Shown piece by piece: positions 8,954 through 33,704 of a stretch of DNA of 64,000 bases. Location of the stretch: contig CBDCVK010000010.1 of assembly GCA_965223005.1 (NCBI GenBank), forward strand, positions 489,322 through 553,321. Reading direction: 5' to 3'. Both the position numbers and the translations under genes were made by a program. Position 1 is the first letter of the stretch. Every line of letters starts with the position of its first letter. Source of the DNA: Terriglobia bacterium (GTDB lineage Bacteria; Acidobacteriota; Terriglobia; JAJPHL01; JAPKYU01). The notes beneath the pieces were generated by a model. That model saw only the letters and a program-made list of their open reading frames with translations. It ran no database searches and was not told the origin of the DNA.

Positions 8954-9303
8954 CGCACCACGTTGTCTCGCTGAAAGCCTATTACCTTGTCTTTGGGGCA
9001 CTTCTCCTGTTAACCATCACCACGGTTGCTGTCGCCTCGTGGGATCTAGGAGAGCTGCTGGATCTAGGAGCATGGGTGAATACGGTGGTCGCGGTCTTGA
9101 TCGCGGTTTTGAAAGCAACTCTGGTTGCCCTCTACTTCATGCACGTCCGCTACAGCAGTCATCTCACAAAAGTGTTCGTGGTGGCGGGATTCTTCTGGTT
9201 GGCCATCCTCATTGGCCTGATCATGAGTGACTTCCTCACCCGGGAGCGGCCTTCCCGCCCCACCAGCCTTGGCGCTTCTGCAACAGCAACCCTGAGTCGG
9301 TAG
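8950..9303 (+). CDS. coxD: Small caa3-oxidase subunit IV-like membrane protein
   Basis: ATGA start/stop overlap with coxC. 117 aa with 3 TM helices. In the conserved position in caa3 operons. Confidence 0.55.
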   Translation: MTHHVVSLKAYYLVFGALLLLTITTVAVASWDLGELLDLGAWVNTVVAVLIAVLKATLVALYFMHVRYSSHLTKVFVVAGFFWLAILIGLIMSDFLTRERPSRPTSLGASATATLSR

Positions 9304-9381
9304 CTCCCTGAAAACCACGCGTAGCAAGTTTTCACGTGTAGCGGGCTTTGATGTTCAGGACAGGCGTCGGAAATTCACGGC

Positions 9382-9992
9382 CTATAGCGGGCTCACCGAC
9401 AGCAACCAGTTCGCAGCCATGGTCCCGGCAGCCTGCAGCCACGCCAAGGAGGACTTTCGTGGTTCACAACGCAGGATTCCAGCGGATGGGAAACTTGGTG
9501 AGTTATCGTCTCCCTCCACGCTGCTCCATCGAACCGGAACGGACATGGGTGGGGCAGGTGGGGAGTCTGCTCCCAGCGCCGTGAGGGAACTCTGACGAGC
9601 CTGCGCGAGCCCGTAGCTGGACAGCGTTCCTCGCCAGCCCAGTTGCGGTGAGAGAAGAAAACCCGATTGCCACCGTTGGTCCGGCAGATAGGGGCGCTCC
9701 AAAGCAACCAGCGGTTGCCAGTCGGTTTGAGGCACCAACGACAAGAGACTAACCAGCGGCGAGGACAATGCGAGCAGTGAGAAGGTTGCGTGATAAGTTG
9801 AGAGTTCCAGCGGTCCGTAGCCTAGCGAGGGTAGCCGGGATCCAATCGTGAACTGCAGATGTCCGAAGGCGCTCACTGGTCCCAACGGCCCCGAGGCTTT
9901 TCCTTCACCAGGATACTCAGGTCAACGCAGTGATCCTCCGGAGCCAGCTTCATGCGGACGTCGGATTCTACAACCGGTTCGATCAAGACGAG
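9382..9992 (-). pseudogene. Degenerate remnant downstream of a truncated Omp85/BamA-like gene. The expected beta-barrel-coding region has no intact frame.
   Basis: Only short broken ORFs on the minus strand. The POTRA gene upstream on this strand terminates prematurely at 9993. Confidence 0.3.
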
Positions 9993-11228
9993 CTAGCTTA
10001 GACGCGCCAAGCTACGGCGCAGTCGTCCCTCATCAAACAAGTCCCCCTCTTGCAACAGCAGGGCTCGTCGCAGGGTCGAATCGCCGACCGCATGGTGGCC
10101 GCGAAATTCAATCTGCCCCACCCGATAGACAGCCCCGGTTTCAATTTTCGCCTTGAGGGCGACCCATGGGCGGGCAACCGCACCCGTTTCAGCTAACCCT
10201 CCTCCCTTCGGGTCAATTCCCCCTCTGTCCCGGAGACGTTCCGAGGTCGTTTTTGCTTCCAGCAAGGCGGTGAACCCAAGTTTGCCCTCTCTTTCCGACT
10301 CGCGGCGTGCTTCTAAGAGGAATTGACACAGTTCGCGACTCGAAAAAGTGCCATCCGGCTGCGGCGGAAGTTCTTGGATCGACTCGGCTCCCACGACCTC
10401 CAGCCGCTCCACGCGATAGCGCGGTCCCGCATCCACCTGCACCGTAACTGTGGCTTTGTCCTCTGCGGTGTTCACGGTGGAGATTCCTACCTTGGCATCA
10501 AAGTAGCCGCGGGAAAGATACAGCGACTGAAGACGTTCCACGTCGGCCTGGAGGCGCTGCTGGCTGAGAGGCGCAAGTAAGCGCCAACCTCGCCATAACG
10601 GGCCTAAGCCAGGCAACAAGCGTTGCGCGCGAGTCGCGCGCAACGCTCCCCGCAACTCGTTTGGTTTCAACCCTAATGATCCCGAGAAGCGCATCTCCTG
10701 TACCCGATAGTCCCGGCCCCGCTCCACCCGGACCCGCAAGTCCGCCTGCTGGAAACCCACCGGGATCACTCCGGCTTCCACCGTCGCCTCAGCGTGACCC
10801 TGCTCGACTAGCTGCTGCCGCAGCGCAGCCGCCACTCTCTTGGCCAGCACGGCATCGATGGGCGTGCCGTTCTCAAGGTCCACCGCGCGACGCTCGTTTT
10901 CGGGGTCGAACTCAACCCGCCGCAGGTGAAGCCGCGGCTTCTCTGCCAGAATGAAAACCAGGTGCACTCCCTCCACGGATGGAGAGCTTTCGACCAGGAT
11001 GGCGTTGAACCAGCCCGTCGCCCACAGGCGACGGACGTCGTGCTCAATACGGACCAGGTCGAGCGTTTGGCCGGAGCGCGTCTCTAATTCAAGAGGCCGC
11101 AGGCTGCCACGAATCTGCAACGTTTGGATGAATGGACTGTCTGCCGCCCATAGCGCAGCATGGGAGAGAAAGGAAAGGAGGAGGGTTCTCCAAATGAACG
11201 GTCCTACCATGGAAGTAACCTCGTTCAA
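9993..11228 (-). CDS. Omp85/BamA-family protein fragment: signal peptide plus repeated POTRA domains, with the C-terminal barrel missing (probable pseudogene)
   Basis: 411 aa. N-terminal signal peptide (LLLSFLSHAALWAADS). Repeated POTRA-like beta-alpha-alpha-beta-beta units (..YRVQEMRFSG.., ..YRVERLEVVG.., ..YRVGQIEFRGHHAV..). It stops inside the last POTRA domain. Confidence 0.55.
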   Translation of the reverse strand: MNEVTSMVGPFIWRTLLLSFLSHAALWAADSPFIQTLQIRGSLRPLELETRSGQTLDLVRIEHDVRRLWATGWFNAILVESSPSVEGVHLVFILAEKPRLHLRRVEFDPENERRAVDLENGTPIDAVLAKRVAAALRQQLVEQGHAEATVEAGVIPVGFQQADLRVRVERGRDYRVQEMRFSGSLGLKPNELRGALRATRAQRLLPGLGPLWRGWRLLAPLSQQRLQADVERLQSLYLSRGYFDAKVGISTVNTAEDKATVTVQVDAGPRYRVERLEVVGAESIQELPPQPDGTFSSRELCQFLLEARRESEREGKLGFTALLEAKTTSERLRDRGGIDPKGGGLAETGAVARPWVALKAKIETGAVYRVGQIEFRGHHAVGDSTLRRALLLQEGDLFDEGRLRRSLARLS

Positions 11229-11393
11229 GGATGATCGAGCAGCTACTCAGGGTAGCCTGGCGTTCAAGCAATACAAGACGGATTTGGAGGATAGAAGTTA
11301 CAAGATACAGGTACGAAATAGCGAGCACGAACAGAGCCGCGAAGGAAGCGGTCAAATCCCCGTAGCCTGTTGAAACGGCATCTTTTAAAAGAA

Positions 11394-11447
11394 TGGTCGG
11401 GCCGTCGGGATTTGAACCCGAGACCTCTTGCACCCCAATTGTGCGTT
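11394..11447 (-). tRNA. tRNA-like 3' fragment (partial anticodon arm, T-arm GGGTTCAAATCCC, acceptor 3' strand and CCA) with no matching 5' half; possible att-site remnant or pseudo-tRNA
   Basis: The reverse complement reads ...gcacaattggggtgcaagaggtctcgggttcaaatcccgacggcccgacca. No complementary 5' acceptor strand lies within 100 nt. Confidence 0.4.
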
Positions 11448-11828
11448 CCATGTTAGCGGCGATGAGATGGAGTGAGCCCAAGTGATACGACCAGCAAGGG
11501 ATGACTCGATTCAACCGCTGTGCCAGGTGACACTGACGCACACCGAGTAATAAGGGGTTAGTTGGGCTTGGATGCCAGGGTCACGTCACAAAGTACGTCA
11601 CAATCGCCGGGCGCCATCACACCGCGCATGCGAGGCTTCCGGCTCGCTGGGATGCCGAGGGCCCTGATGGTACCAGCCCGAGCCGTTTCGTGGGCACCGT
11701 TTGCTATTGACCAAACCCGTCAAGGGGTTGACGGAGAGTGTCTCACCTTTAGTTGAAAGTCGAGCGGCGGTTCGCTGACCTGGTTCCGTAGAATCGGGTT
11801 GGGAAACTTTCTGGAAAGGGGAACCGCC

Positions 11829-11951
11829 GTGCAGAGAAGCTACCACATCCTAGGCCGGAGCGATAGCCGAAGCTCCCGCAAACTGGCTGCCTACCTGGCT
11901 CGCCACGGGCAGTTTCTGCTGCCCTGGGTGGAGTTGATCGAACAATCGCGG
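11829..11951 (+). pseudogene. N-terminal 41-codon fragment of the IS256-family transposase, severed by the IS1182 insertion
   Basis: GTG..QRSYHILGRSDSRSSRKLAAYLARHGQFLLPWVELIEQSR. The same frame continues as AVDELIDVVGRAAIEAVL... at 13452, on the other side of the inserted element. Confidence 0.5.
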
Positions 11952-13453
11952 TTAGCAGCCCGTGTCTAAAATCGCCAGATGGGGAAGAAACATGTTACTT
12001 CGGAAATGTTCTTACTTACAATCGGGCCATGGCCATGGGAACGCGCAAGCATCGTCAGCGACAAGAGCCGCTGTGGTATCGGGCAGAGTTGGCCGAGGCG
12101 CCCGGACACCCGTTCTACCGGCGGCTGCACCAACTGTTGGAGGAAGCCGATTTTGATCGATTCTGCGAGAGTCGGTGCCGGCAGTTCTACCACGAGCGGC
12201 TGGGCCGACCGTCGTTGCCGCCGGGGATGTACTTCCGGTTGATGCTGATCGGCTTCTTCGAGGGGATCGACAGCGAGCGAGGCATCGCCTGGCGGGTGGC
12301 CGATTCCTTGAGTTTGCGGCAGTTTTTGCAGATTGGGCTGGATGAACAGACGCCGGATCATGTGACGATCTCGCGCACGCGGCGGCTGATGGACGAGCCG
12401 ACGCACCAGGAAGTGTTTGGATGGGTGCTGCGGCTGGTGGCCGAACGGGGCCTGCTGAAGGGCAAGACGATCGGCATTGACGCCACCACGCTGGAAGCCA
12501 ACGCGGCCATGAGGTCGATCATGCGGCGGGACAGCGGGGAAAGCTATACGGAGTACCTGAAGCGGTTGGCGGAGGCCGAAGGGATCGAAGCCCAGGATGC
12601 AGCGGCGCTGCGGAGGATGGACCGCTGCCGACCGAAGAAGATGTCCAATGCGAAGTGGGTGAACCCACATGATCGGGAAGCGGAGATCACCCGGATGAAG
12701 GACGGGCGCACGGCACTGGCTTACAAGGCCGAGCATGCGGTGGACATGGAGACTGGGGCGATTGTGGCGCTGACGGCGCACGGGGGAGCGACCGGCGACA
12801 CGGAATCGGTTCAGCAGACCCTGCCGGCGGCCGGCGCGGCGGTGGGCGAGCAGATCGCGACACCCACGGCCGAAGGGGAGTTTGTGGTGAACGCAGACGG
12901 GGTGGAAGAGGTGGTGGCCGACAAGGGGTATCACAGTGGGGAAGTGCTGGCAGAGATGCAGGCGATGGAGGTGCGGACCTACATTGCGGAGCCGGAGCGG
13001 GGACGGCGGCAATGGACGGGCAAGGAAGAGCAGAAGGCGGCGGTCTACCGCAATCGGCGGCGGGTGACGGGGCAGCGAGGGAAGGCGCTGCTGCGGAAAC
13101 GTGGGGAGATGCTGGAGCGTCCGTTTGCGCACATGTATGAGACGGGCAGGATGAGACGCTTGTATGTCCGTGGGAAGATAAACGTGCAAAAGAAACTGTT
13201 GCTGCAGGCAGCAGCCTGCAACCTGGCGCTAGTTTTGCGCCAGCTGCTGGGGGCGGGAACCCCGCGAGGCCTGCAAGACCGCATCACCGAGCTGTTTTTG
13301 CTCGTTTTCTGGATCACTGCCACAAGAATGGCCCACCCCGAATCCCCCACGCCCCTATCCTGGTGCAACGGTCAAATTCACGGCTTTGCTCTTCACTTGC
13401 CCCGCCTGAAAAAGAGGCCGGCCCAAAGGCCGGTTTAGACACGGGCTGTTAGC
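11951..13453 (+). mobile_element. IS1182/IS5-superfamily insertion sequence (about 1.5 kb) nested inside the IS256-family transposase gene
   Basis: Terminal inverted repeats GTTAGCAGCCCGTGTCTAAA (11951-11970) and TTTAGACACGGGCTGTTAGC (13434-13453), 18/20 matching. It encloses a 469-aa DDE transposase. Confidence 0.75.
12029..13438 (+). CDS. IS1182-family (IS5 superfamily) DDE transposase
   Basis: 469 aa. Motifs typical of IS1182 transposases: FYRRLHQLL, GIDATTLEANAA, DKGYHSGE, ERPFAHMYETGRMRRLYVRG...NVQKKLLLQAAACNL. Confidence 0.85.
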   Translation: MAMGTRKHRQRQEPLWYRAELAEAPGHPFYRRLHQLLEEADFDRFCESRCRQFYHERLGRPSLPPGMYFRLMLIGFFEGIDSERGIAWRVADSLSLRQFLQIGLDEQTPDHVTISRTRRLMDEPTHQEVFGWVLRLVAERGLLKGKTIGIDATTLEANAAMRSIMRRDSGESYTEYLKRLAEAEGIEAQDAAALRRMDRCRPKKMSNAKWVNPHDREAEITRMKDGRTALAYKAEHAVDMETGAIVALTAHGGATGDTESVQQTLPAAGAAVGEQIATPTAEGEFVVNADGVEEVVADKGYHSGEVLAEMQAMEVRTYIAEPERGRRQWTGKEEQKAAVYRNRRRVTGQRGKALLRKRGEMLERPFAHMYETGRMRRLYVRGKINVQKKLLLQAAACNLALVLRQLLGAGTPRGLQDRITELFLLVFWITATRMAHPESPTPLSWCNGQIHGFALHLPRLKKRPAQRPV

Positions 13454-14615
13454 CGTCGACGAGCTGATCGACGTGGTGGGTAGGGCGGCGATTGAAGCGG
13501 TGCTGGAGTTGTCGGCCGCGCAGGTGGCCGGTCCACGCCGTCAGGGCCGGCGGCGCCGTGGGGTAGGCTGGTATGGGCGCCAGCGGGGACGGGTGCGCCT
13601 GAAGGAGAGAAAGCTGGCCGTGCACAGGCCACGGCTCCGGCGGCCAGGCCGGGGAGCGGGGAAAGAAGTTCCCCTCCCGGCCTACGAAGCCATGCAGGAG
13701 GGCGAGGGTCTGGGGGCCCGGATGTTGGATATCTTGCTGCGGGGCGTCTCGACCCGGCAGTACCAGCGGGTGTTGCCGGAGATGGCGGACACCGTGGGTG
13801 TGTCGCGCTCCACGGTCAGCCGGGAAACGATGGAGGCTGCCGCAGCCGAGTTAGAACGTCTGTTGAACCGCCGCTTCGAGGAAGTAGAGTTGCTGATCCT
13901 CTACATCGACGGGATGGTGTTTGGCGACCATCACGTGATTGCGGCTGTGGGCGTGGATGCGGAAGGGCACAAGCACGTGCTGGGGATTCAGGAGGGGGCT
14001 ACGGAGAACGCCGCGGCCGTCCAGGACTTGCTGGAAGGTTTAGTGCGGCGAGGGGTGCAGCCGGCCCAGAAACGGCTGTTTGTGATCGACGGCTCGAAGG
14101 CCTTGCGGGCGGCGATCCGCGCCGTGTTCGGGGCCGAGCAGCCGGTGCAGCGCTGCCGCGCCCACAAGTTGCGCAACGTCCTGGACCGGTTGCCGGAGCC
14201 AGAGCGGGACCAGGTGCGGGCGGCGATGCGGGCCGCCTGGCGGTTGGATCCGAAGACCGGCAGGGCCAAGCTGGAGAAGTTGGCCCAATGGTTGGAGCGA
14301 GATTGTCCGGCCGCGGCGGCCAGCTTGCGGGAGGGTCTGGAGGAATGTTTCACCATCAACCGGCTGGGGCTTCCGGCTTCGCTGCATCGCTGTCTGGCCA
14401 CCACCAATCTCATCGAGAGTCCGCAGGCGGGAGTGAGGTTGCGAACTCGCCGGGTGTGCCGCTGGCGGGATGCGGCCATGGTCCAGCGCTGGGTCGCCTC
14501 CAGCTTCCTGGCCACGGAGAAAAACTTCCGCCGCCTGATGGGGTACCAGGACCTGTGGATGTTGAAAGCGATCCTCGAAGGATCAAAGTCGGCCACTCGA
14601 CGGGAGGTGGCGTAG
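13452..14615 (+). CDS. IS256-family (Mutator-like) transposase, main C-terminal portion; 5' end separated by the nested IS
   Basis: VDELIDVVGRAAIEAVLELSA..RRGVGWYGRQRGRVRLKERKLAVHRPRLR...LILYIDGMVF...QRCRAHKLRNVLDRLPE, typical of IS256/Mutator transposases. The frame is open from 13410; the ORF track starts it at 13473. Confidence 0.8.
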   Translation, partial: AVDELIDVVGRAAIEAVLELSAAQVAGPRRQGRRRRGVGWYGRQRGRVRLKERKLAVHRPRLRRPGRGAGKEVPLPAYEAMQEGEGLGARMLDILLRGVSTRQYQRVLPEMADTVGVSRSTVSRETMEAAAAELERLLNRRFEEVELLILYIDGMVFGDHHVIAAVGVDAEGHKHVLGIQEGATENAAAVQDLLEGLVRRGVQPAQKRLFVIDGSKALRAAIRAVFGAEQPVQRCRAHKLRNVLDRLPEPERDQVRAAMRAAWRLDPKTGRAKLEKLAQWLERDCPAAAASLREGLEECFTINRLGLPASLHRCLATTNLIESPQAGVRLRTRRVCRWRDAAMVQRWVASSFLATEKNFRRLMGYQDLWMLKAILEGSKSATRREVA

Positions 14616-14672
14616 TATGATGGCTCCGAACCGCCGCTACGAACTTTCAACTGAGTTCAGGACACCCTCGTT

Positions 14673-14825
14673 GGCCTGGCTGGTCAACTTGGCCACTTGG
14701 CGGCGGTGCCGGCAGTCCTCCACGTCCAGCTCGTGCAATCCGTGCTGCTGCGCCAGCAAGTCCAGCGCTGTGTCGTCGGGGTCCGCAAGGTGAATCCAGG
14801 GGACGCCGGGAAACGGTTCCGCCAT
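14673..14825 (-). pseudogene. corA: N-terminal fragment (about 50 codons) of a CorA-type Mg2+/Co2+ transporter, truncated by the IS256-family insertion
   Basis: MAEPFPGVPWIHLADPDDTALDLLAQQHGLHELDVEDCRHRRQVAKLTSQAN matches the conserved CorA N-domain segment (WIxLxxPxxEE..L...FGLHxLxxED...xxQRPKxExxxN). The reading then runs into the IS terminal repeat. No GMN-motif C-terminal part is present. Confidence 0.6.
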
Positions 14826-14868
14826 GGCTAGCTCTCAATCAATGGGATTTCCAACGCCCGTAGTCTAG

Positions 14869-16208
14869 CAGGATGCTGAAAAAGTCCCTGGGCGACCTCT
14901 TACGAACAAAATATAAATGAGTATAATTGTTCTCATTATGCGAGGACACGATCTGCACCAAGACGCGATGTTCAGCTACCTGAGCCCCGAGCAACGGGTG
15001 CCCCAGGATCATCCGTTGCGGCCGATACGCCGCATGACCGACCAAGCACTGCAACGGCTTTCGCCGCGGTTCGAGCGGATGTATGCTGACATCGGTCGCC
15101 CCTCGATCGCCCCGGAGAAGCTGCTGCGGGCCTTGCTGCTGCAGGTGCTCTACACCATCCGCAGCGAACGGATGCTGCTGGAGCAACTCGATTACAACCT
15201 CCTGTTCCGGTGGTTTGTGGGACTGAACATGGATGACGCGGTGTGGGTGCCGACGGTGTTCAGCAAGAACCGGGACCGGCTGCTGGAGGGGGCCGTCGCC
15301 GAGGCATTCTTTGACGAGGTGTTGCGCGAGGCGGGCGAGCAGGAGTTGCTGTCGGAGGAGCACTTCACGGTGGACGGGACGCTGCTGGAGGCGTGGGCGA
15401 GCCAGAAGAGCTTTCAGAGGAAGGACGCGCCGGAGGGGCCGCCGCCGGAGGATCCGGGCAATCCCACGGTGGACTTCCACAAAGAGAAGCGGACCAACGA
15501 AACGCACCAGTCGACGACAGACCCGGACGCTCGGCTGGCCCGGAAGGGCAAAGGCAAGGAGGCCAAGCTGAGCTACGTCGGGCACGTGCTGATGGAGAAC
15601 CGCAACGGGCTGGTGGTGAATGTGCGGCTGACCCAGGCCACCGGCACCGCCGAGCGGGAAGCGGCCGTGGAGATGGTGGACGACATTCCGGGCCCGAAGC
15701 AGGTGACGGTGGGTGCCGACAAGAACTACGACGCCGAAGCGATGGTGCAGCAGTTGCGGGAACGGAAGGCCACGCCGCACGTGGCGCAGAACCAGGAACG
15801 GCGGCGCAGTGCCATCGACAGCCGGACCACACGGCACCCGGGTTACCAGATCAGCCAGAGAGCGCGGAAGAAGGTGGAAGAGAGTTTCGGATGGATGAAG
15901 ACGGTCGGGTTGCTGCGGAAGCTGCGGCATCGGGGCCTGGAGCGCGTCGGCTGGATCTTCACCTTTACGGCTGCCGCCTTCAACCTGGTCCGGATTCGCA
16001 ACTTGGTGATCGGGGCCGTCCCGCCGCGGGTAGTGGGCCCAGGGGCCGCCTGAGGAGGAGTGTGTCCAAAGGACGAAAAAGGGCTGGGAAAGGCAAAAGA
16101 CAAGGCCCCAAAGGGCCAATAGCGAGGTTCACTACGAACCGAACGGCTCAAAGAAAATTCCCACAGGATAAACGCTACTGAATTTTTTGGCCCTTTTTCA
16201 GCACCCTG
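14869..16208 (+). mobile_element. IS5-family insertion sequence (1340 bp) flanked by a 4-bp CTAG target-site duplication (14865-14868 and 16209-16212)
   Basis: Terminal inverted repeats CAGGATGCTGAAAAAGTCCC (14869-14888) and GGGCCCTTTTTCAGCACCCTG (16189-16208), 17/20 matching. CTAG lies directly outside both ends. It encloses a 378-aa IS5-type transposase. Confidence 0.75.
14917..16053 (+). CDS. IS5-family DDE transposase (InsH-like N-terminal domain)
   Basis: MFSYLSPEQRVPQDHPLRPIR...PEKLLRALLLQVLYTIRSERMLLEQLDYNLLFRWFVGL (DUF772/InsH N-terminus), FTVDGTLLEAWAS, GADKNYD, and a C-terminal ...FNLVRIRNL. Confidence 0.85.
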   Translation: MSIIVLIMRGHDLHQDAMFSYLSPEQRVPQDHPLRPIRRMTDQALQRLSPRFERMYADIGRPSIAPEKLLRALLLQVLYTIRSERMLLEQLDYNLLFRWFVGLNMDDAVWVPTVFSKNRDRLLEGAVAEAFFDEVLREAGEQELLSEEHFTVDGTLLEAWASQKSFQRKDAPEGPPPEDPGNPTVDFHKEKRTNETHQSTTDPDARLARKGKGKEAKLSYVGHVLMENRNGLVVNVRLTQATGTAEREAAVEMVDDIPGPKQVTVGADKNYDAEAMVQQLRERKATPHVAQNQERRRSAIDSRTTRHPGYQISQRARKKVEESFGWMKTVGLLRKLRHRGLERVGWIFTFTAAAFNLVRIRNLVIGAVPPRVVGPGAA

Positions 16209-16334
16209 CTAGTGCCGTTCCAACTTGATTTGCTAGTCACTTGGTTTGCGACAGCTAGCCAAAAAACAGCTGAAACAGCACTGGTGCAAGCCCTTCCCCG
16301 CCGTCTGCCGCTGTTTGGCCCTCGTTCCAGGCCA

Positions 16335-16349
16335 GACACCCAGGGTGTC
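16335..16349 (+). promoter_or_regulatory. Perfect palindrome GACACCC-ag-GGGTGTC upstream of gltA; candidate operator
   Basis: 7-bp inverted repeat with a 2-nt spacer, about 110 bp upstream of the citrate synthase start. Confidence 0.3.
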
Positions 16350-16458
16350 TTGTGGCGAGCCGCCCTCTGGCACAAAGCTCGATTTCCCCCGGCCGGGGTT
16401 TCCGTGCTAGATTATTGTCCTCGTTCGGACAAGAAATTCTGCTGGGAGAAGAGGTCTT

Positions 16459-31090: not shown

Positions 31091-31185
31091 TGGCGGAAGG
31101 TTATGGGAATCGAACCCATCGCTGCTCGTGAGAAACAGCCACCGGCTTTGAAGGCCGGGCGAGTCACCAGACCCGATTACCTTCC
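31091..31185 (-). tRNA. selC: Selenocysteine tRNA (tRNA-Sec), anticodon UCA
   Basis: 95-nt minus-strand tRNA GGAAGGTAATCGGGTCTGGTGACTCGCCCGGCCTTCAAAGCCGGTGGCTGTTTCTCACGAGCAGCGATGGGTTCGATTCCCATAACCTTCCGCCA. It has an 8-bp acceptor stem, a 6-bp D-stem with 4-nt loop (CGGGTC/TGGT/GACTCG), a CUUCAAA anticodon loop, a long variable arm, a 5-bp T-stem with TTCGATT loop, G discriminator and encoded CCA. This is the bacterial tRNA-Sec 8/5 architecture, strongly similar to E. coli selC. Confidence 0.85.
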
Positions 31186-31229: not shown

Positions 31230-33704
31230 TCAACGGGAGGCAGTCCGTTCCAGAGCCCGCTCGGTGTACCGATACACCAGGTGGTTGGTGCATACTTCGT
31301 AGTAGCGTCGCTGGGTGTACTCCTTCAAGCTGAAGGAGTGGGCATCCACAAAGGGAATCTGCGCTTCGCGCACCACCAGCCGCTGGAACACCTCGTTGGG
31401 CAAGGGGAAGGCACCACAGTGCAGCGTCACCTTTTCCGGCTGCCAGAGCAAGGGCATTTCCAGCTCGACCGGCTGGAGCGAAATCTCCTCTTGCAGTTTG
31501 TCAAACGCCTCCTCGCTCAGGCAAATCCCGGTGTTGTAGCGGACCAGGAACTCTTCCATGGCGCCTGCGGCGGCCTCTTCGGTGATGGTCTGGAACACGA
31601 ACGCCCGGAAGAGCGACTGCTTGCTGTCCAGCGCGCGGCGGGCCAGCTTGCTGCACCCGCTGAGCCGGTCGGCCAGGTTGATGGCCGAGGAGATCATGAT
31701 CCGGGTCTCGCCGTCCAGCAGGTACATGGGCGTCGAGTTCTGCCAGCAGATTCCGATGCCAATCTCCAGCCGCGGCAAGTCCGCCTTCTCGGCCCTCGCA
31801 TTGTATTGCTCGACCACGGCCATGATCTCCCGCGCCAAGCCACAGGCTCGGGCCACGGGATAACCGCCCAGCGCCGCACCTTGTTTCTCGAACATTGCCA
31901 GAATCACCGCGTCGCCCTCAATGAACACCTTCTCACCGGCGTACTTGGGCAGCAGCTTGTTCAGCGGTTCGTAAAAGTTCAGACTGAAGTGGCTGGCCGG
32001 ATTCAGGCCGCGGGCGAACAGGTCGGCGGTGAGCCGGGTGGAGTCACGCACGTCGGCTTTCAGAATCACGTGGCCTAGTATCTGTTCGCCCTGCGGCTTG
32101 TCCTCCGCCGGCAGCAGGAACTCGTACAGGGTGTTGTTGATTCGGGAAAGCTGCCGGGTTTTTTCCTCAAACAGCAGGTTGACCCGCTCCATCAGGCCTT
32201 GCAGGGCCTGTAGCAGGCAATTGTCGCGGTGGTGCCGCAGGAAATCGCGAACGAAGCGAACGAGAAAGGCGCGGAGGTCACGTGGTTGATAGGTACGCAC
32301 TCGAGCGGCGGCCTCTTCCAGAGTGGCTACGCTGGCCCGGGTCAGCTTGTAATGCGTGATCAGGTCGGCCACCTTCTTGAGTTCGGAAGGGTCCAGGAGG
32401 GCGCGTTTCAGTTGCTGCGGATGGATCGGCGGGCAGTAGTCCTGGTAGACGTTCGCCGTCTCGTAGGCGGCGGCGAAGCAGGGCAATAGCCCCAACTGCT
32501 GCGCTGCGTTATAAAATTCATCAACTAGCTGGCGCTGGATCTCTAGCCTTTCCTTCAGGGCGCTCAGTTCTTTCCGCGGTGCCTTTCGCGACTGCGCCTC
32601 AGCCAGCAGTTGCTCGGTGCGCACAGTACCGAGCAGCTGCTCCACATTTTCGGGGACGTTGAGCATCTCCGTCAGGTGCGCGTCATAGGCTTCCGTCGAC
32701 AGCCGCAGTTGTTCGGCCGACTGCCTCAGTTGTCTCTCCGGCTCCTCTAGGCGCCCCGCAAGATCGGGAGAGGCCGGAGACGGGGTCTCGGGGCGGGGAC
32801 CGAAGAGGCGTCCCAATCCCAATCCCAGCCCGCGCTCGGGAGGCTGGAGCTGGTCGCGCAAAGATGAGGTCCGGCTGGCCAATTGGTGATGCTCCTGCTG
32901 ACGGGTCTCCAGCTCACGCGCCTCCGGTCCGACTGCGTCCACCCCCTTGAGCATGGACTTCAGCCAGCGCTCCACGGATTCGTACAGGTCCGGGTCGCGG
33001 TGGAAGTTGCCCAACATGACGTACTTGGTTAGCTGAATGTAATCGTCACGGCCGGTTTCGGTGAACACCAGCGGGTGAGAAAAGTAAGTGAACCAGGGAC
33101 TGGCTTCGTCGCCGAAAAAGGATTCGCGCGTCTTGCGGACCACACCAGCCTGCACTTCGTTAGCCAGCGACAGTAATTCATTCGAAACGCGTCGGAAGAC
33201 GTTCTTCTTGTCGGCCTGAAACTCGCTGAAGATTTCCTTCAGTTGGAAGGCGCGCAAGTTCCGATCGTGGCGCGGCCCTTCATACATCCGCAGCTTGTTC
33301 TTGCCCTCCATCTGGATGCGGCCGTACTGTTGCTGCACTTCCCAGCTCAGGTACTTGAAGAGGGCGACGTTTCCCAATAGGTCGATGTCGGGGTTGCGCG
33401 CCTCCTTGGCGTGGCTGAGCGCACTGAGCAGTACCTCCTGCAACAGACGCTTGAATTCGTTGCGCTCCTGCGGCTTGGGCGGGCCCGGGTTCTGCTCCGC
33501 CAGTTCAGGCGCGCGGCTGTGCTTCATAAAGAGCTTGAGAATGTAGCCCCCGGTGAAGCCGATGAAGCGGGAGCTCAGGTGGACGTCGTGGCGGACGTTG
33601 TCCACGCCCGGCACTAGCGATGGAAAGCGCAGGTCCGGTGCGGACCCGACGAGGTGAACCGCTGCATATACGCGTTCCGGGCTGGAACGGGAGAACAGCG
33701 GCAT
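31230..33704 (-). CDS. Large cytoplasmic protein with a C-terminal class III adenylate/guanylate cyclase-like catalytic domain and an uncharacterised ~580-aa N-terminal region
   Basis: C-terminal ILKADVRDSTRL...EGDAVILAMF...LEIGIGI...ISSAINLADRL follows the CHD cyclase pattern (FADIxGFT...GDA...IGI..G.......G..VNLAARL). The N-terminus is not recognised. Confidence 0.6.
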   Translation of the reverse strand: MPLFSRSSPERVYAAVHLVGSAPDLRFPSLVPGVDNVRHDVHLSSRFIGFTGGYILKLFMKHSRAPELAEQNPGPPKPQERNEFKRLLQEVLLSALSHAKEARNPDIDLLGNVALFKYLSWEVQQQYGRIQMEGKNKLRMYEGPRHDRNLRAFQLKEIFSEFQADKKNVFRRVSNELLSLANEVQAGVVRKTRESFFGDEASPWFTYFSHPLVFTETGRDDYIQLTKYVMLGNFHRDPDLYESVERWLKSMLKGVDAVGPEARELETRQQEHHQLASRTSSLRDQLQPPERGLGLGLGRLFGPRPETPSPASPDLAGRLEEPERQLRQSAEQLRLSTEAYDAHLTEMLNVPENVEQLLGTVRTEQLLAEAQSRKAPRKELSALKERLEIQRQLVDEFYNAAQQLGLLPCFAAAYETANVYQDYCPPIHPQQLKRALLDPSELKKVADLITHYKLTRASVATLEEAAARVRTYQPRDLRAFLVRFVRDFLRHHRDNCLLQALQGLMERVNLLFEEKTRQLSRINNTLYEFLLPAEDKPQGEQILGHVILKADVRDSTRLTADLFARGLNPASHFSLNFYEPLNKLLPKYAGEKVFIEGDAVILAMFEKQGAALGGYPVARACGLAREIMAVVEQYNARAEKADLPRLEIGIGICWQNSTPMYLLDGETRIMISSAINLADRLSGCSKLARRALDSKQSLFRAFVFQTITEEAAAGAMEEFLVRYNTGICLSEEAFDKLQEEISLQPVELEMPLLWQPEKVTLHCGAFPLPNEVFQRLVVREAQIPFVDAHSFSLKEYTQRRYYEVCTNHLVYRYTERALERTASR

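Follow-up and report, generated by a model that had tools for sequence, protein, structure and literature searches.

The locus described here raises the question of how a gene for an IS256-type transposase came to be broken in two by a second mobile element, within a stretch of 64,000 nucleotides that was analysed as a whole and is referred to below as the window. Our analysis indicates that the nesting is almost certainly real, with one insertion sequence (IS) interrupting the gene that encodes the transposase of another, unrelated one, and no evidence contrary to the nesting itself was met in the sequence comparisons. A nested insertion is an ordinary event for a transposon-rich soil bacterium and is mechanistically nothing new; the inner element has no evident host function, and the relevance of the locus beyond annotation is small. 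A search of the literature for a survey that could be cited on IS nesting in bacteria returned nothing useful. All the elements described in an earlier note on this DNA are present, within 1-4 nt of where it had placed them, and their refined limits are collected in Table 1.

Table 1. Features of the two nested insertion sequences, with positions counted from the first letter of the window
Feature	Position	Strand	Evidence
Outer IS256-family element	11734..14669	+	Homology to intact copies (L001, L092-L101) starts and stops there once 11956-13452 is removed
Left terminal inverted repeat, outer element (GAGAGTGTC...GGTTCG)	11734..11774	+	Aligned, with gaps, to the reverse-complemented right end; ungapped core in repeat search
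5' fragment of outer transposase gene (codons 1-42 and base 1 of codon 43)	11829..11955	+	429-aa intact homologues share the GTG start
Left TTAG of 4-bp target-site duplication	11952..11955	.	Duplicated at other loci; intact outer copies have one TTAG here
Inner element, 1,493 bp, IS1182-like (IS5/IS1182 group)	11956..13448	+	Nine further loci with different flanks
Left inverted repeat, inner element (CAGCCCGTGTCTAAA)	11956..11970	+	Repeat search and comparison with other loci
Inner transposase gene, 469 aa, intact	12029..13438	+	Pfam DUF772, DDE_Tnp_1_6, DDE_Tnp_1
Right inverted repeat, inner element (TTTAGACACGGGCTG)	13434..13448	+	Repeat search and comparison with other loci
Right TTAG of 4-bp target-site duplication	13449..13452	.	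Comparison with other loci
3' fragment of outer transposase gene (remainder of codon 43, codons 44-429 and stop)	13453..14615	+	Pfam Transposase_mut
Right terminal inverted repeat, outer element (...GACACCCTC)	14627..14669	+	Repeat search, gapped alignment and intact copies

The divided transposase gene and its insert

The earlier note had described an IS256-type frame split between 11951 and 13452. The split and the family assignment stand, the latter with 229.5 bits on the curated IS256 model NF033543 (cut-off 150), whereas the breakpoints move to 11955 and 13453. The outer frame begins at a GTG behind a ribosome-binding-like motif (GGAAAGGGGA) and runs as ...LLPWVELIEQSRL to the first breakpoint; in situ it then enters the insert (LAARV) and reaches a stop at 11967-11969, giving a 47-aa N-terminal stub. 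Beyond the insert the frame resumes as (L)AVDELIDVVGRAAIEAVL... and continues to its natural end. The 3' fragment matches Pfam Transposase_mut over profile positions 22-376 (E 5.9e-39) and is reported by gene callers as a 380-aa ORF starting at GTG 13473 (P0248). Annotation should treat this 'Transposase_mut' ORF and the stub of 47 aa as parts of a single disrupted gene.

In-silico deletion of the inner element together with one TTAG (11956-13452) yields an open 429-aa frame, to which 7,997 homologues (E<=1e-10) align colinearly. Seven intact 429-aa variants each differ from the rebuilt protein by 1 aa, and P0001 differs from it by 2 aa (E223Q and E293A); this bears out the view that the outer pieces are otherwise intact. 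The intact relatives inspected have no extra residues between ...IEQSRL and AVDELI.... The window copy and the intact copy at L001 differ at five positions within the ORF. The idea that these differences are all synonymous was rejected because P0001 differs at the two residues named above, and the idea that E223 is a private mutation of the dead window copy was rejected because six intact variants also have it. A promoter scan of 11600-14900 found no sigma-70-like sites. With a 47-aa stub and a promoterless 3' fragment in place of an unbroken gene, the window's outer copy can presumably no longer make its own transposase.

The element between the two fragments is complete, as had been proposed, and its 469-aa transposase frame is uninterrupted and carries three Pfam domains. 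Its ends had been given as 20-bp inverted repeats matching at 18 of 20 positions, and this description has to be replaced. A repeat search returned a 22-nt, 91% inverted repeat (11949-11970 and 13434-13455), and comparison with nine other loci fixes the true termini at a perfect repeat of 15 matches in 15 positions; the longer repeat appeared because the TTAG duplication and two flanking bases of the near-palindromic target CGGTTAGCCG had been included. Both the 20-bp repeat and a 6-bp GTTAGC duplication were rejected on the same comparison, as the features common to other inner copies are limited to their CAGCCC...GGGCTG ends and a YTAG of 4 bp. The insertion site is the TTAG at 219-222 of the outer element, within codons 42-43 of the interrupted gene.

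The outer element and its flanks

Taken alone, the outer element measures 1,439 bp; with the insert and the extra TTAG it spans 2,936 bp. The imperfect terminal repeats of about 40 bp that the earlier note had placed at 11733-11775 and 14626-14670 were recovered with slightly refined limits: they measure 41 and 43 nt and align with 36 matches over 44 columns, including three single-base gaps. The ends were also set independently of the repeats, by homology to 11 intact copies, which stops at the same positions.

IS256-family elements, such as IS256 of Staphylococcus and ISPaes3 and ISPpa1 of Paracoccus, span about 1.2-1.5 kb and combine a single ORF with imperfect inverted repeats of some 20-40 bp at their termini. 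The outer element fits this layout in its length, in the length and imperfection of its repeats, and in its single 429-aa ORF for a Mutator-type DDE transposase, which scores above the cut-off not only on NF033543 but also on PF00872 (135.9 bits; cut-off 21). Its sister copies carry 8-bp target duplications, within the 8-9 bp of the family. Candidate catalytic residues, assigned by motif pattern, are D195 (YIDG), D255 (VIDG) and E364 (TTNLIES); their spacing of 60 and 109 is near the 66 and 108 of D167/D233/E341, which we take to be the IS256 triad and on which the assignment is based. At only ~70% identity, the closest relative with a name is an 'IS256 family transposase [Bryobacteraceae bacterium]', and the outer element is probably an unnamed member of the family.

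The window's copy departs from the family pattern in being interrupted and in having no target duplication, as the 8-bp flanks GGTTGACG on the left and GTTGGCCT on the right do not match. It abuts the orphan 5' remnant of a truncated corA-like gene, and we attribute the missing duplication to a later rearrangement of the flanks, so that the copy's own insertion history at this locus is not directly readable. The locus thus offers a small case of IS-associated rearrangement. For the remainder of the corA-like gene, the GMN motif is absent from every frame of the window. ARAGORN found no tRNA adjoining the element; only a sub-threshold tmRNA-like 3' end turned up. An IS5-family element with a CTAG duplication is located 200 bp to the right, at 14869-16208.

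Copies elsewhere, order of events and other explanations

Each element is present at other loci too, with unchanged ends but other flanks; the inverted repeats therefore delimit genuine units, and the nesting is not a product of chance. The inner element is found at nine further loci, 0-2 nt from the window copy if two altered left ends are set aside, with CTAG or TTAG at the intact right end and a matching CTAG or TTAG on both sides at seven of the nine. The window copy is 100% identical in DNA to those at L005 and L011, and the 469-aa protein occurs in identical form on at least 20 contigs. Within the window itself, no other copy of either element was found; the sole similarity was a stretch of 31% identity within the nearby IS5-family gene.

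Uninterrupted outer copies, which the earlier note had proposed as a means of reconstructing the empty site, gave a uniform answer. All 11 intact copies compared (L001 and L092-L101) carry the predicted site AATCGCGGTTAGCCGTCGACGAGC with a single TTAG, and eight of them have perfect 8-bp target duplications. One of these copies, L093, differs from the restored window copy at 1 of 1,439 nt; it lies ~690 kb away from L010, the locus matching the window, on the same 1.545-Mb contig. Together with the identical inner copies, this supports the proposal that the insertion is very recent, as judged on the time-scale of sequence divergence, and that the inner element has recently been active.

These observations almost certainly reflect a simple order of events. 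An IS256-family element with a 429-aa Mutator-type DDE transposase and imperfect repeats of ~41-43 bp (1,439 bp in all) was already resident at the locus. A second, unrelated element of 1,493 bp then transposed into its TTAG at 219-222 and duplicated it, with the inner IS5/IS1182-type DDE transposase making 4-bp staggered cuts at YTAG targets, and the outer gene was left as the stub and the promoterless 3' fragment. Since neither outer end is damaged and the same contig holds an intact sister copy, the resulting 2.9-kb composite could still be mobilised in trans.

Three other explanations were weighed against this order. The metagenome holds multiple copies of either element, and a long-read assembler might have misjoined reads from separate copies; a 1-nt indel at 14670 between the window and the ENA locus L010 indicates that small assembly errors do exist here. 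We nevertheless regard a misjoin as very improbable, as it would not give a precise TTAG duplication, complete ends and an exactly restorable 429-codon frame. Coverage is ~37x according to the contig name, and the nesting is seen independently in two assemblies, P0248 being present on two contigs and L010 showing one similar place. Still less credible is a history in which the inner element came first and the outer halves were brought to its sides separately or by recombination between copies. The missing target duplication and the truncated gene at one flank of the outer copy do point to some rearrangement at the locus, but the outer halves are exactly complementary, with nothing lost or doubled besides the TTAG of the inner element, and they share their orientation and are equally close to one intact copy (1 nt in 1,439), which independent events would not produce. 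Scarcely conceivable, too, is a regulated or domesticated split transposase, for example a 380-aa inhibitor of transposition made by read-through from the inner element: the ORF from GTG 13473 is still open and predicted by gene callers, but the scan of 11600-14900 revealed no sigma-70-like promoter, the split form is confined to a single locus on two contigs that are nearly identical, and it was not seen conserved among relatives, the other fragments in the cluster differing in length.

Transposition of the inner element into a resident outer one is therefore the reading that we retain. The near-identical copies show that both elements have been active very recently in the population; on that account they are candidates for marking variation at strain level. 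Both ISs of these uncultured Acidobacteriota are probably unnamed so far, and their exact ends, target duplications and target preference should be useful for IS databases and for repeat masking in long-read MAGs.

Family placement of the inner element: IS5 or IS1182

The earlier assignment of the inner element to IS1182 holds less firmly than its completeness. IS1182 (NF033551) is the best curated family for the transposase (183.3 bits, E 8e-54), yet this score falls below the 270-bit cut-off; the best IS5 model, NF033581 (IS5_4), gives 92.7 bits against a cut-off of 140, and no curated model accepts the protein. Its closest annotated relatives, at 46-50% identity, are called just 'transposase' and in one case 'IS5 family'.

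In its architecture the inner element resembles IS1182. The transposase is also long (469 aa, compared with 488 model positions) and carries DUF772 at its N-terminus and DDE_Tnp_1_6 at its C-terminus, and the element is likewise ~1.5 kb in length, with 15-bp repeats and a 4-bp duplication. ISPse1 of Paracoccus seriniphilus, of the IS1182 family, measures 1,653 bp, with 16-bp repeats and a 4-bp duplication (Table 2, PMC3281130). However, such an architecture, with one long ORF of about 450-550 aa, DUF772 and DDE_Tnp_1_6 domains and short repeats and duplications, does not discriminate, because part of the IS5 family has the same features. A neighbouring bona fide IS5-family protein even outscores the inner transposase on the IS1182 model (198 bits), and PLSDB relatives labelled IS1182 are only 27-28% identical to it.

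Other traits recall the IS5 family. The inner transposase also combines a DDE_Tnp_1 catalytic domain with DUF772, and the termini begin with CAG, like those of the IS5-family element to the right of the outer copy. IS5 of E. coli, in the IS5 group of the IS5 family, uses 4-bp YTAR targets, and the inner element also duplicates 4 bp, CTAG or TTAG, both of which fit that pattern. In contrast, its transposase is ~100-180 aa longer than the IS5 models and shares just 31% identity with the neighbouring IS5-family transposase across 113 aa. We consider the inner element best called IS1182-like, within the IS5/IS1182 group.

More tentatively, and with the balance in our view against it, the inner element and its relatives might form a coherent, unclassified IS group between IS5 and IS1182, whose CTAG specificity could breed self-limiting 'IS graveyards'. 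The traits of the proposed group are CAG...CTG ends, lengths of ~1.46-1.52 kb and transposases of roughly 470 aa, and its elements are abundant and multi-copy in Acidobacteriota. An exact search of GTDB species genomes with the inner left end (30 nt) gave no match; a protein-based follow-up scan recovered relatives at <=66% identity. Six related lineages, found in Acidobacteriota and other MAGs at 56-66% aa identity, share CAG...CTG ends, and CTAG or TTAG stands on both sides in 25 of their 26 copies. The target of the group may be strictly CTAG, with TTAG as a secondary site, and such specificity could steer new insertions into other mobile elements and beside earlier copies. If this is true, the three-element cluster in the window would be one such graveyard. 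CTAG is ~three-fold depleted in the window.

Boundaries of the nested elements

We found that the insertion of an IS1182-like insertion sequence into the transposase gene of an IS256-family element is real, precisely resolvable and recent; both elements belong to known kinds, probably as members not yet named. Three coding pieces lie on the + strand within 11700-14700. Pfam assigned DUF772, DDE_Tnp_1_6 and DDE_Tnp_1 to the 469-aa protein, and the Mutator transposase family (PF00872, E 5.9e-39) to the 380-aa downstream piece, which is an N-terminally truncated transposase since its match begins only at profile position 22. A repeat search detected a 22-nt inverted repeat (91%; 11949-11970 / 13434-13455) bracketing the 469-aa gene and a weaker 27-nt repeat (11734-11760 / 14643-14669) bracketing the whole arrangement. 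These data place the nested layout within a few bases of where an earlier note, made from the sequence only, had drawn it.

At least 20 contigs from two ENA metagenome assemblies code for the identical 469-aa protein. Of ten loci retrieved, L010 is the window's own and matches window 9029-16437 apart from one extra base, which left nine to be aligned to the window. The shared homology begins CAGCCCGTGTCTAAA and stops TTTAGACACGGGCTG, and seven of the nine carry the same tetranucleotide on both sides (CTAG in six, TTAG in one). Because other loci share these ends and most have a tetranucleotide duplicated beside them, the inner element could be delimited exactly in the window. What the earlier note had read as 20-bp terminal repeats matching at 18 positions are really perfect 15-bp inverted repeats plus a TTAG duplication, the longer match reflecting the near-palindromic nature of the target CGGTTAGCCG. 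The inner copies at the other loci lie 0-2 nt from the window copy (identical in L005 and L011), except two with altered left ends. In these two (L004 and L008, 2928-2933 in both), the first 5-6 bases are replaced (TGACAC..., GCCTAA... for CAGCCC...); the altered end in L004 directly follows an IS3-family (rve) gene, and insertions nearby seem to have truncated or overwritten both ends.

Features of the nested locus and its flanks (window coordinates)
Feature	Position	Strand	Details
tRNA-like or tmRNA-like 3' end	11394-11460	-	left flank; T-arm, acceptor strand, CCA; Rfam tmRNA 20.6 bits, E 2.6e-6
Outer element (IS256 family)	11734-14669		1,439 bp without insert; limits of homology to intact copies
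Short ORF	stop at 11967-11969	+	...ARHGQFLLPWVELIEQSRLAARV*
Inner target duplication	11952-11955 and 13449-13452		TTAG
Inner element (IS1182-like)	11956-13448		1,493 bp; ends common to other loci
469-aa ORF	12029-13438	+
380-aa ORF	13473-14615	+	frame already open from 13452/13453 as AVDELIDVVGRAAIEAVL...
CorA-like Mg2+ transporter gene, 5' remnant	14670-14825	-	first 52 codons; PF01544, profile positions 4-46, E 8e-4
IS5-family duplication	14865-14868 and 16209-16212		CTAG
IS5-family element (third IS)	14869-16208		1,340 bp; repeats CAGGATGCTGAAAAAG / CTTTTTCAGCACCCTG, 15/16
IS5-family transposase	14917-16053		378 aa; 295 bits on NF033581

Reconstruction of the outer element and order of events

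Deleting 11956-13452 (element plus one TTAG) in silico gave an open 429-aa frame from a GTG at 11829. Against the curated IS256-family model, whose cut-off is 150, the reconstructed transposase obtains 229.5 bits; its Pfam coverage reaches back to profile position 18. Among 7,997 homologues at E<=1e-10 in a collection of 5.8 billion proteins, the top ones are uninterrupted, 425-433 aa long and cover 100% of the query. The nearest cluster holds seven intact 429-aa variants, each one residue from the reconstruction; another uninterrupted match, P0001, differs at two residues, its tabulated 100% being due to rounding. The earlier note had proposed recovering the empty site from uninterrupted copies; such copies exist, and all eleven fetched as DNA (L001, L092-L101) carry the predicted AATCGCGGTTAGCCGTCGACGAGC. 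Perfect 8-bp duplications, as are typical of the IS256 family, flank eight of the eleven (e.g. GAAACCGA, CCAGTCTT, AATACGCG), and the terminal repeats (11734-11774 / 14627-14669) match in 36 of 44 aligned columns. By every IS256 trait that could be tested, the outer element belongs to this family.

One intact copy, L093, shares its 1.545-Mb contig with L010, approximately 690 kb away. Of its 1,439 nt, a single one differs from the window copy (13992 G versus C; E223 versus Q223). E223 is ruled out as a decay mutation of the window copy, since intact variants also carry it.

The two outer halves rejoin without loss or gain beyond the inner element's own 4-bp duplication; judged from this exact fit, the order of events can only be outer element first, inner element second. 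Both elements are nearly identical to their sister copies in this population, which dates the insertion as very recent, in agreement with the age suggested in the earlier note. The outer copy is now reduced to a stub of 47 aa and a 3' fragment that lacks a promoter (a promoter scan found no sigma-70-like sites in 11600-14900) and thus should be unable to make its own transposase. Mobilisation in trans may still be possible, given its intact ends and the intact copy on the same contig. IS-rich genomes commonly contain one insertion sequence nested in another, although we found no citable survey of them in the literature. Within the outer element CTAG occurs once and TTAG four times; such sites are about three-fold under-represented in the window (61% G+C), so that a hit inside another IS is unremarkable for a YTAG-restricted element. 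The nesting implies no new mechanism.

Family and relatives of the inner element

The IS1182 assignment in the earlier note holds in part. IS1182 is the best-scoring curated family for the inner transposase (183 bits, E 8e-54), clearly under the 270-bit cut-off, and is favoured by protein length and domain layout; IS5 models score lower (92.7 bits, cut-off 140). The neighbouring genuine IS5-family transposase reaches 198 bits on the IS1182 model, which therefore cross-reacts. The closest annotated PLSDB relatives (46-50% identity) are named "transposase" and once "IS5 family", while IS1182-labelled proteins are 27-28% and IS5-labelled ones 24-27% identical. The 4-bp duplication and 15-16-bp repeats agree with ISPse1, a captured IS1182-family element (PMC3281130), and equally with the IS5 group. 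We therefore provisionally label the inner element IS1182-like and place it in the IS5/IS1182 group.

Guided by the protein, a scan of one genome for each GTDB species recovered 216 relatives, all at <=66% identity and mostly from Bryobacterales, Terriglobia and Acidobacteriaceae MAGs. Six multi-copy related lineages share an element of 1.46-1.52 kb with CAG...CTG ends, and CTAG (once TTAG) lies on both sides in 25 of the 26 copies examined. These shared features mark the inner element as typical of a YTAG-specific group that is coherent and recently active. Two of its lineages lie end to end in a Bryobacterales MAG, with one CTAG in common (L012 3904-5387 and L013 960-2445); such insertions regenerate their own target and seem to accumulate.

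Flanks and neighbouring features

Unlike most of its sister copies, the window's outer copy has no 8-bp target duplication (11726-11733 GGTTGACG on the left, 14670-14677 GTTGGCCT on the right); L101 likewise has none, and L092 shows only a 6/8 match. The CorA-like remnant breaks off precisely where the outer element ends on the right, and neither the GMN motif nor the remainder of the gene is present anywhere in the 64-kb window. The missing duplication and the gene cut at the IS end indicate that the flanks were not originally adjacent, probably because two outer copies recombined or sequence next to the IS was deleted.

Over 7.4 kb the window departs from ENA contig ctg836337_37x_l (L010) at one point only: the contig has an additional C at the very right end of the outer element (window 14670 / L010 5642; CCCTCC versus CCCTC). 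L099 seems to carry the same C; either a homopolymer error or genuine heterogeneity of the ends may explain it.

The IS5-family element lies about 200 bp right of the outer element and about 40 bp upstream of the start of the corA remnant, which makes this locus a small three-IS cluster. On the left flank, the tmRNA match falls below the Rfam gathering score and ARAGORN made no call there; this 3' end may be the attachment-site remnant of an integrated element. Just left of the cluster, a 411-aa ORF (9993-11228, - strand) carries three POTRA repeats, but its frame lacks an Omp85 barrel domain; it is possibly a BamA-like gene that has been truncated or split. Elsewhere in the window, an 824-aa ORF (31230-33704, - strand) is followed directly on its 3' side by a selenocysteine tRNA gene of the same strand (31091-31185; anticodon TCA, Rfam 78.5 bits).
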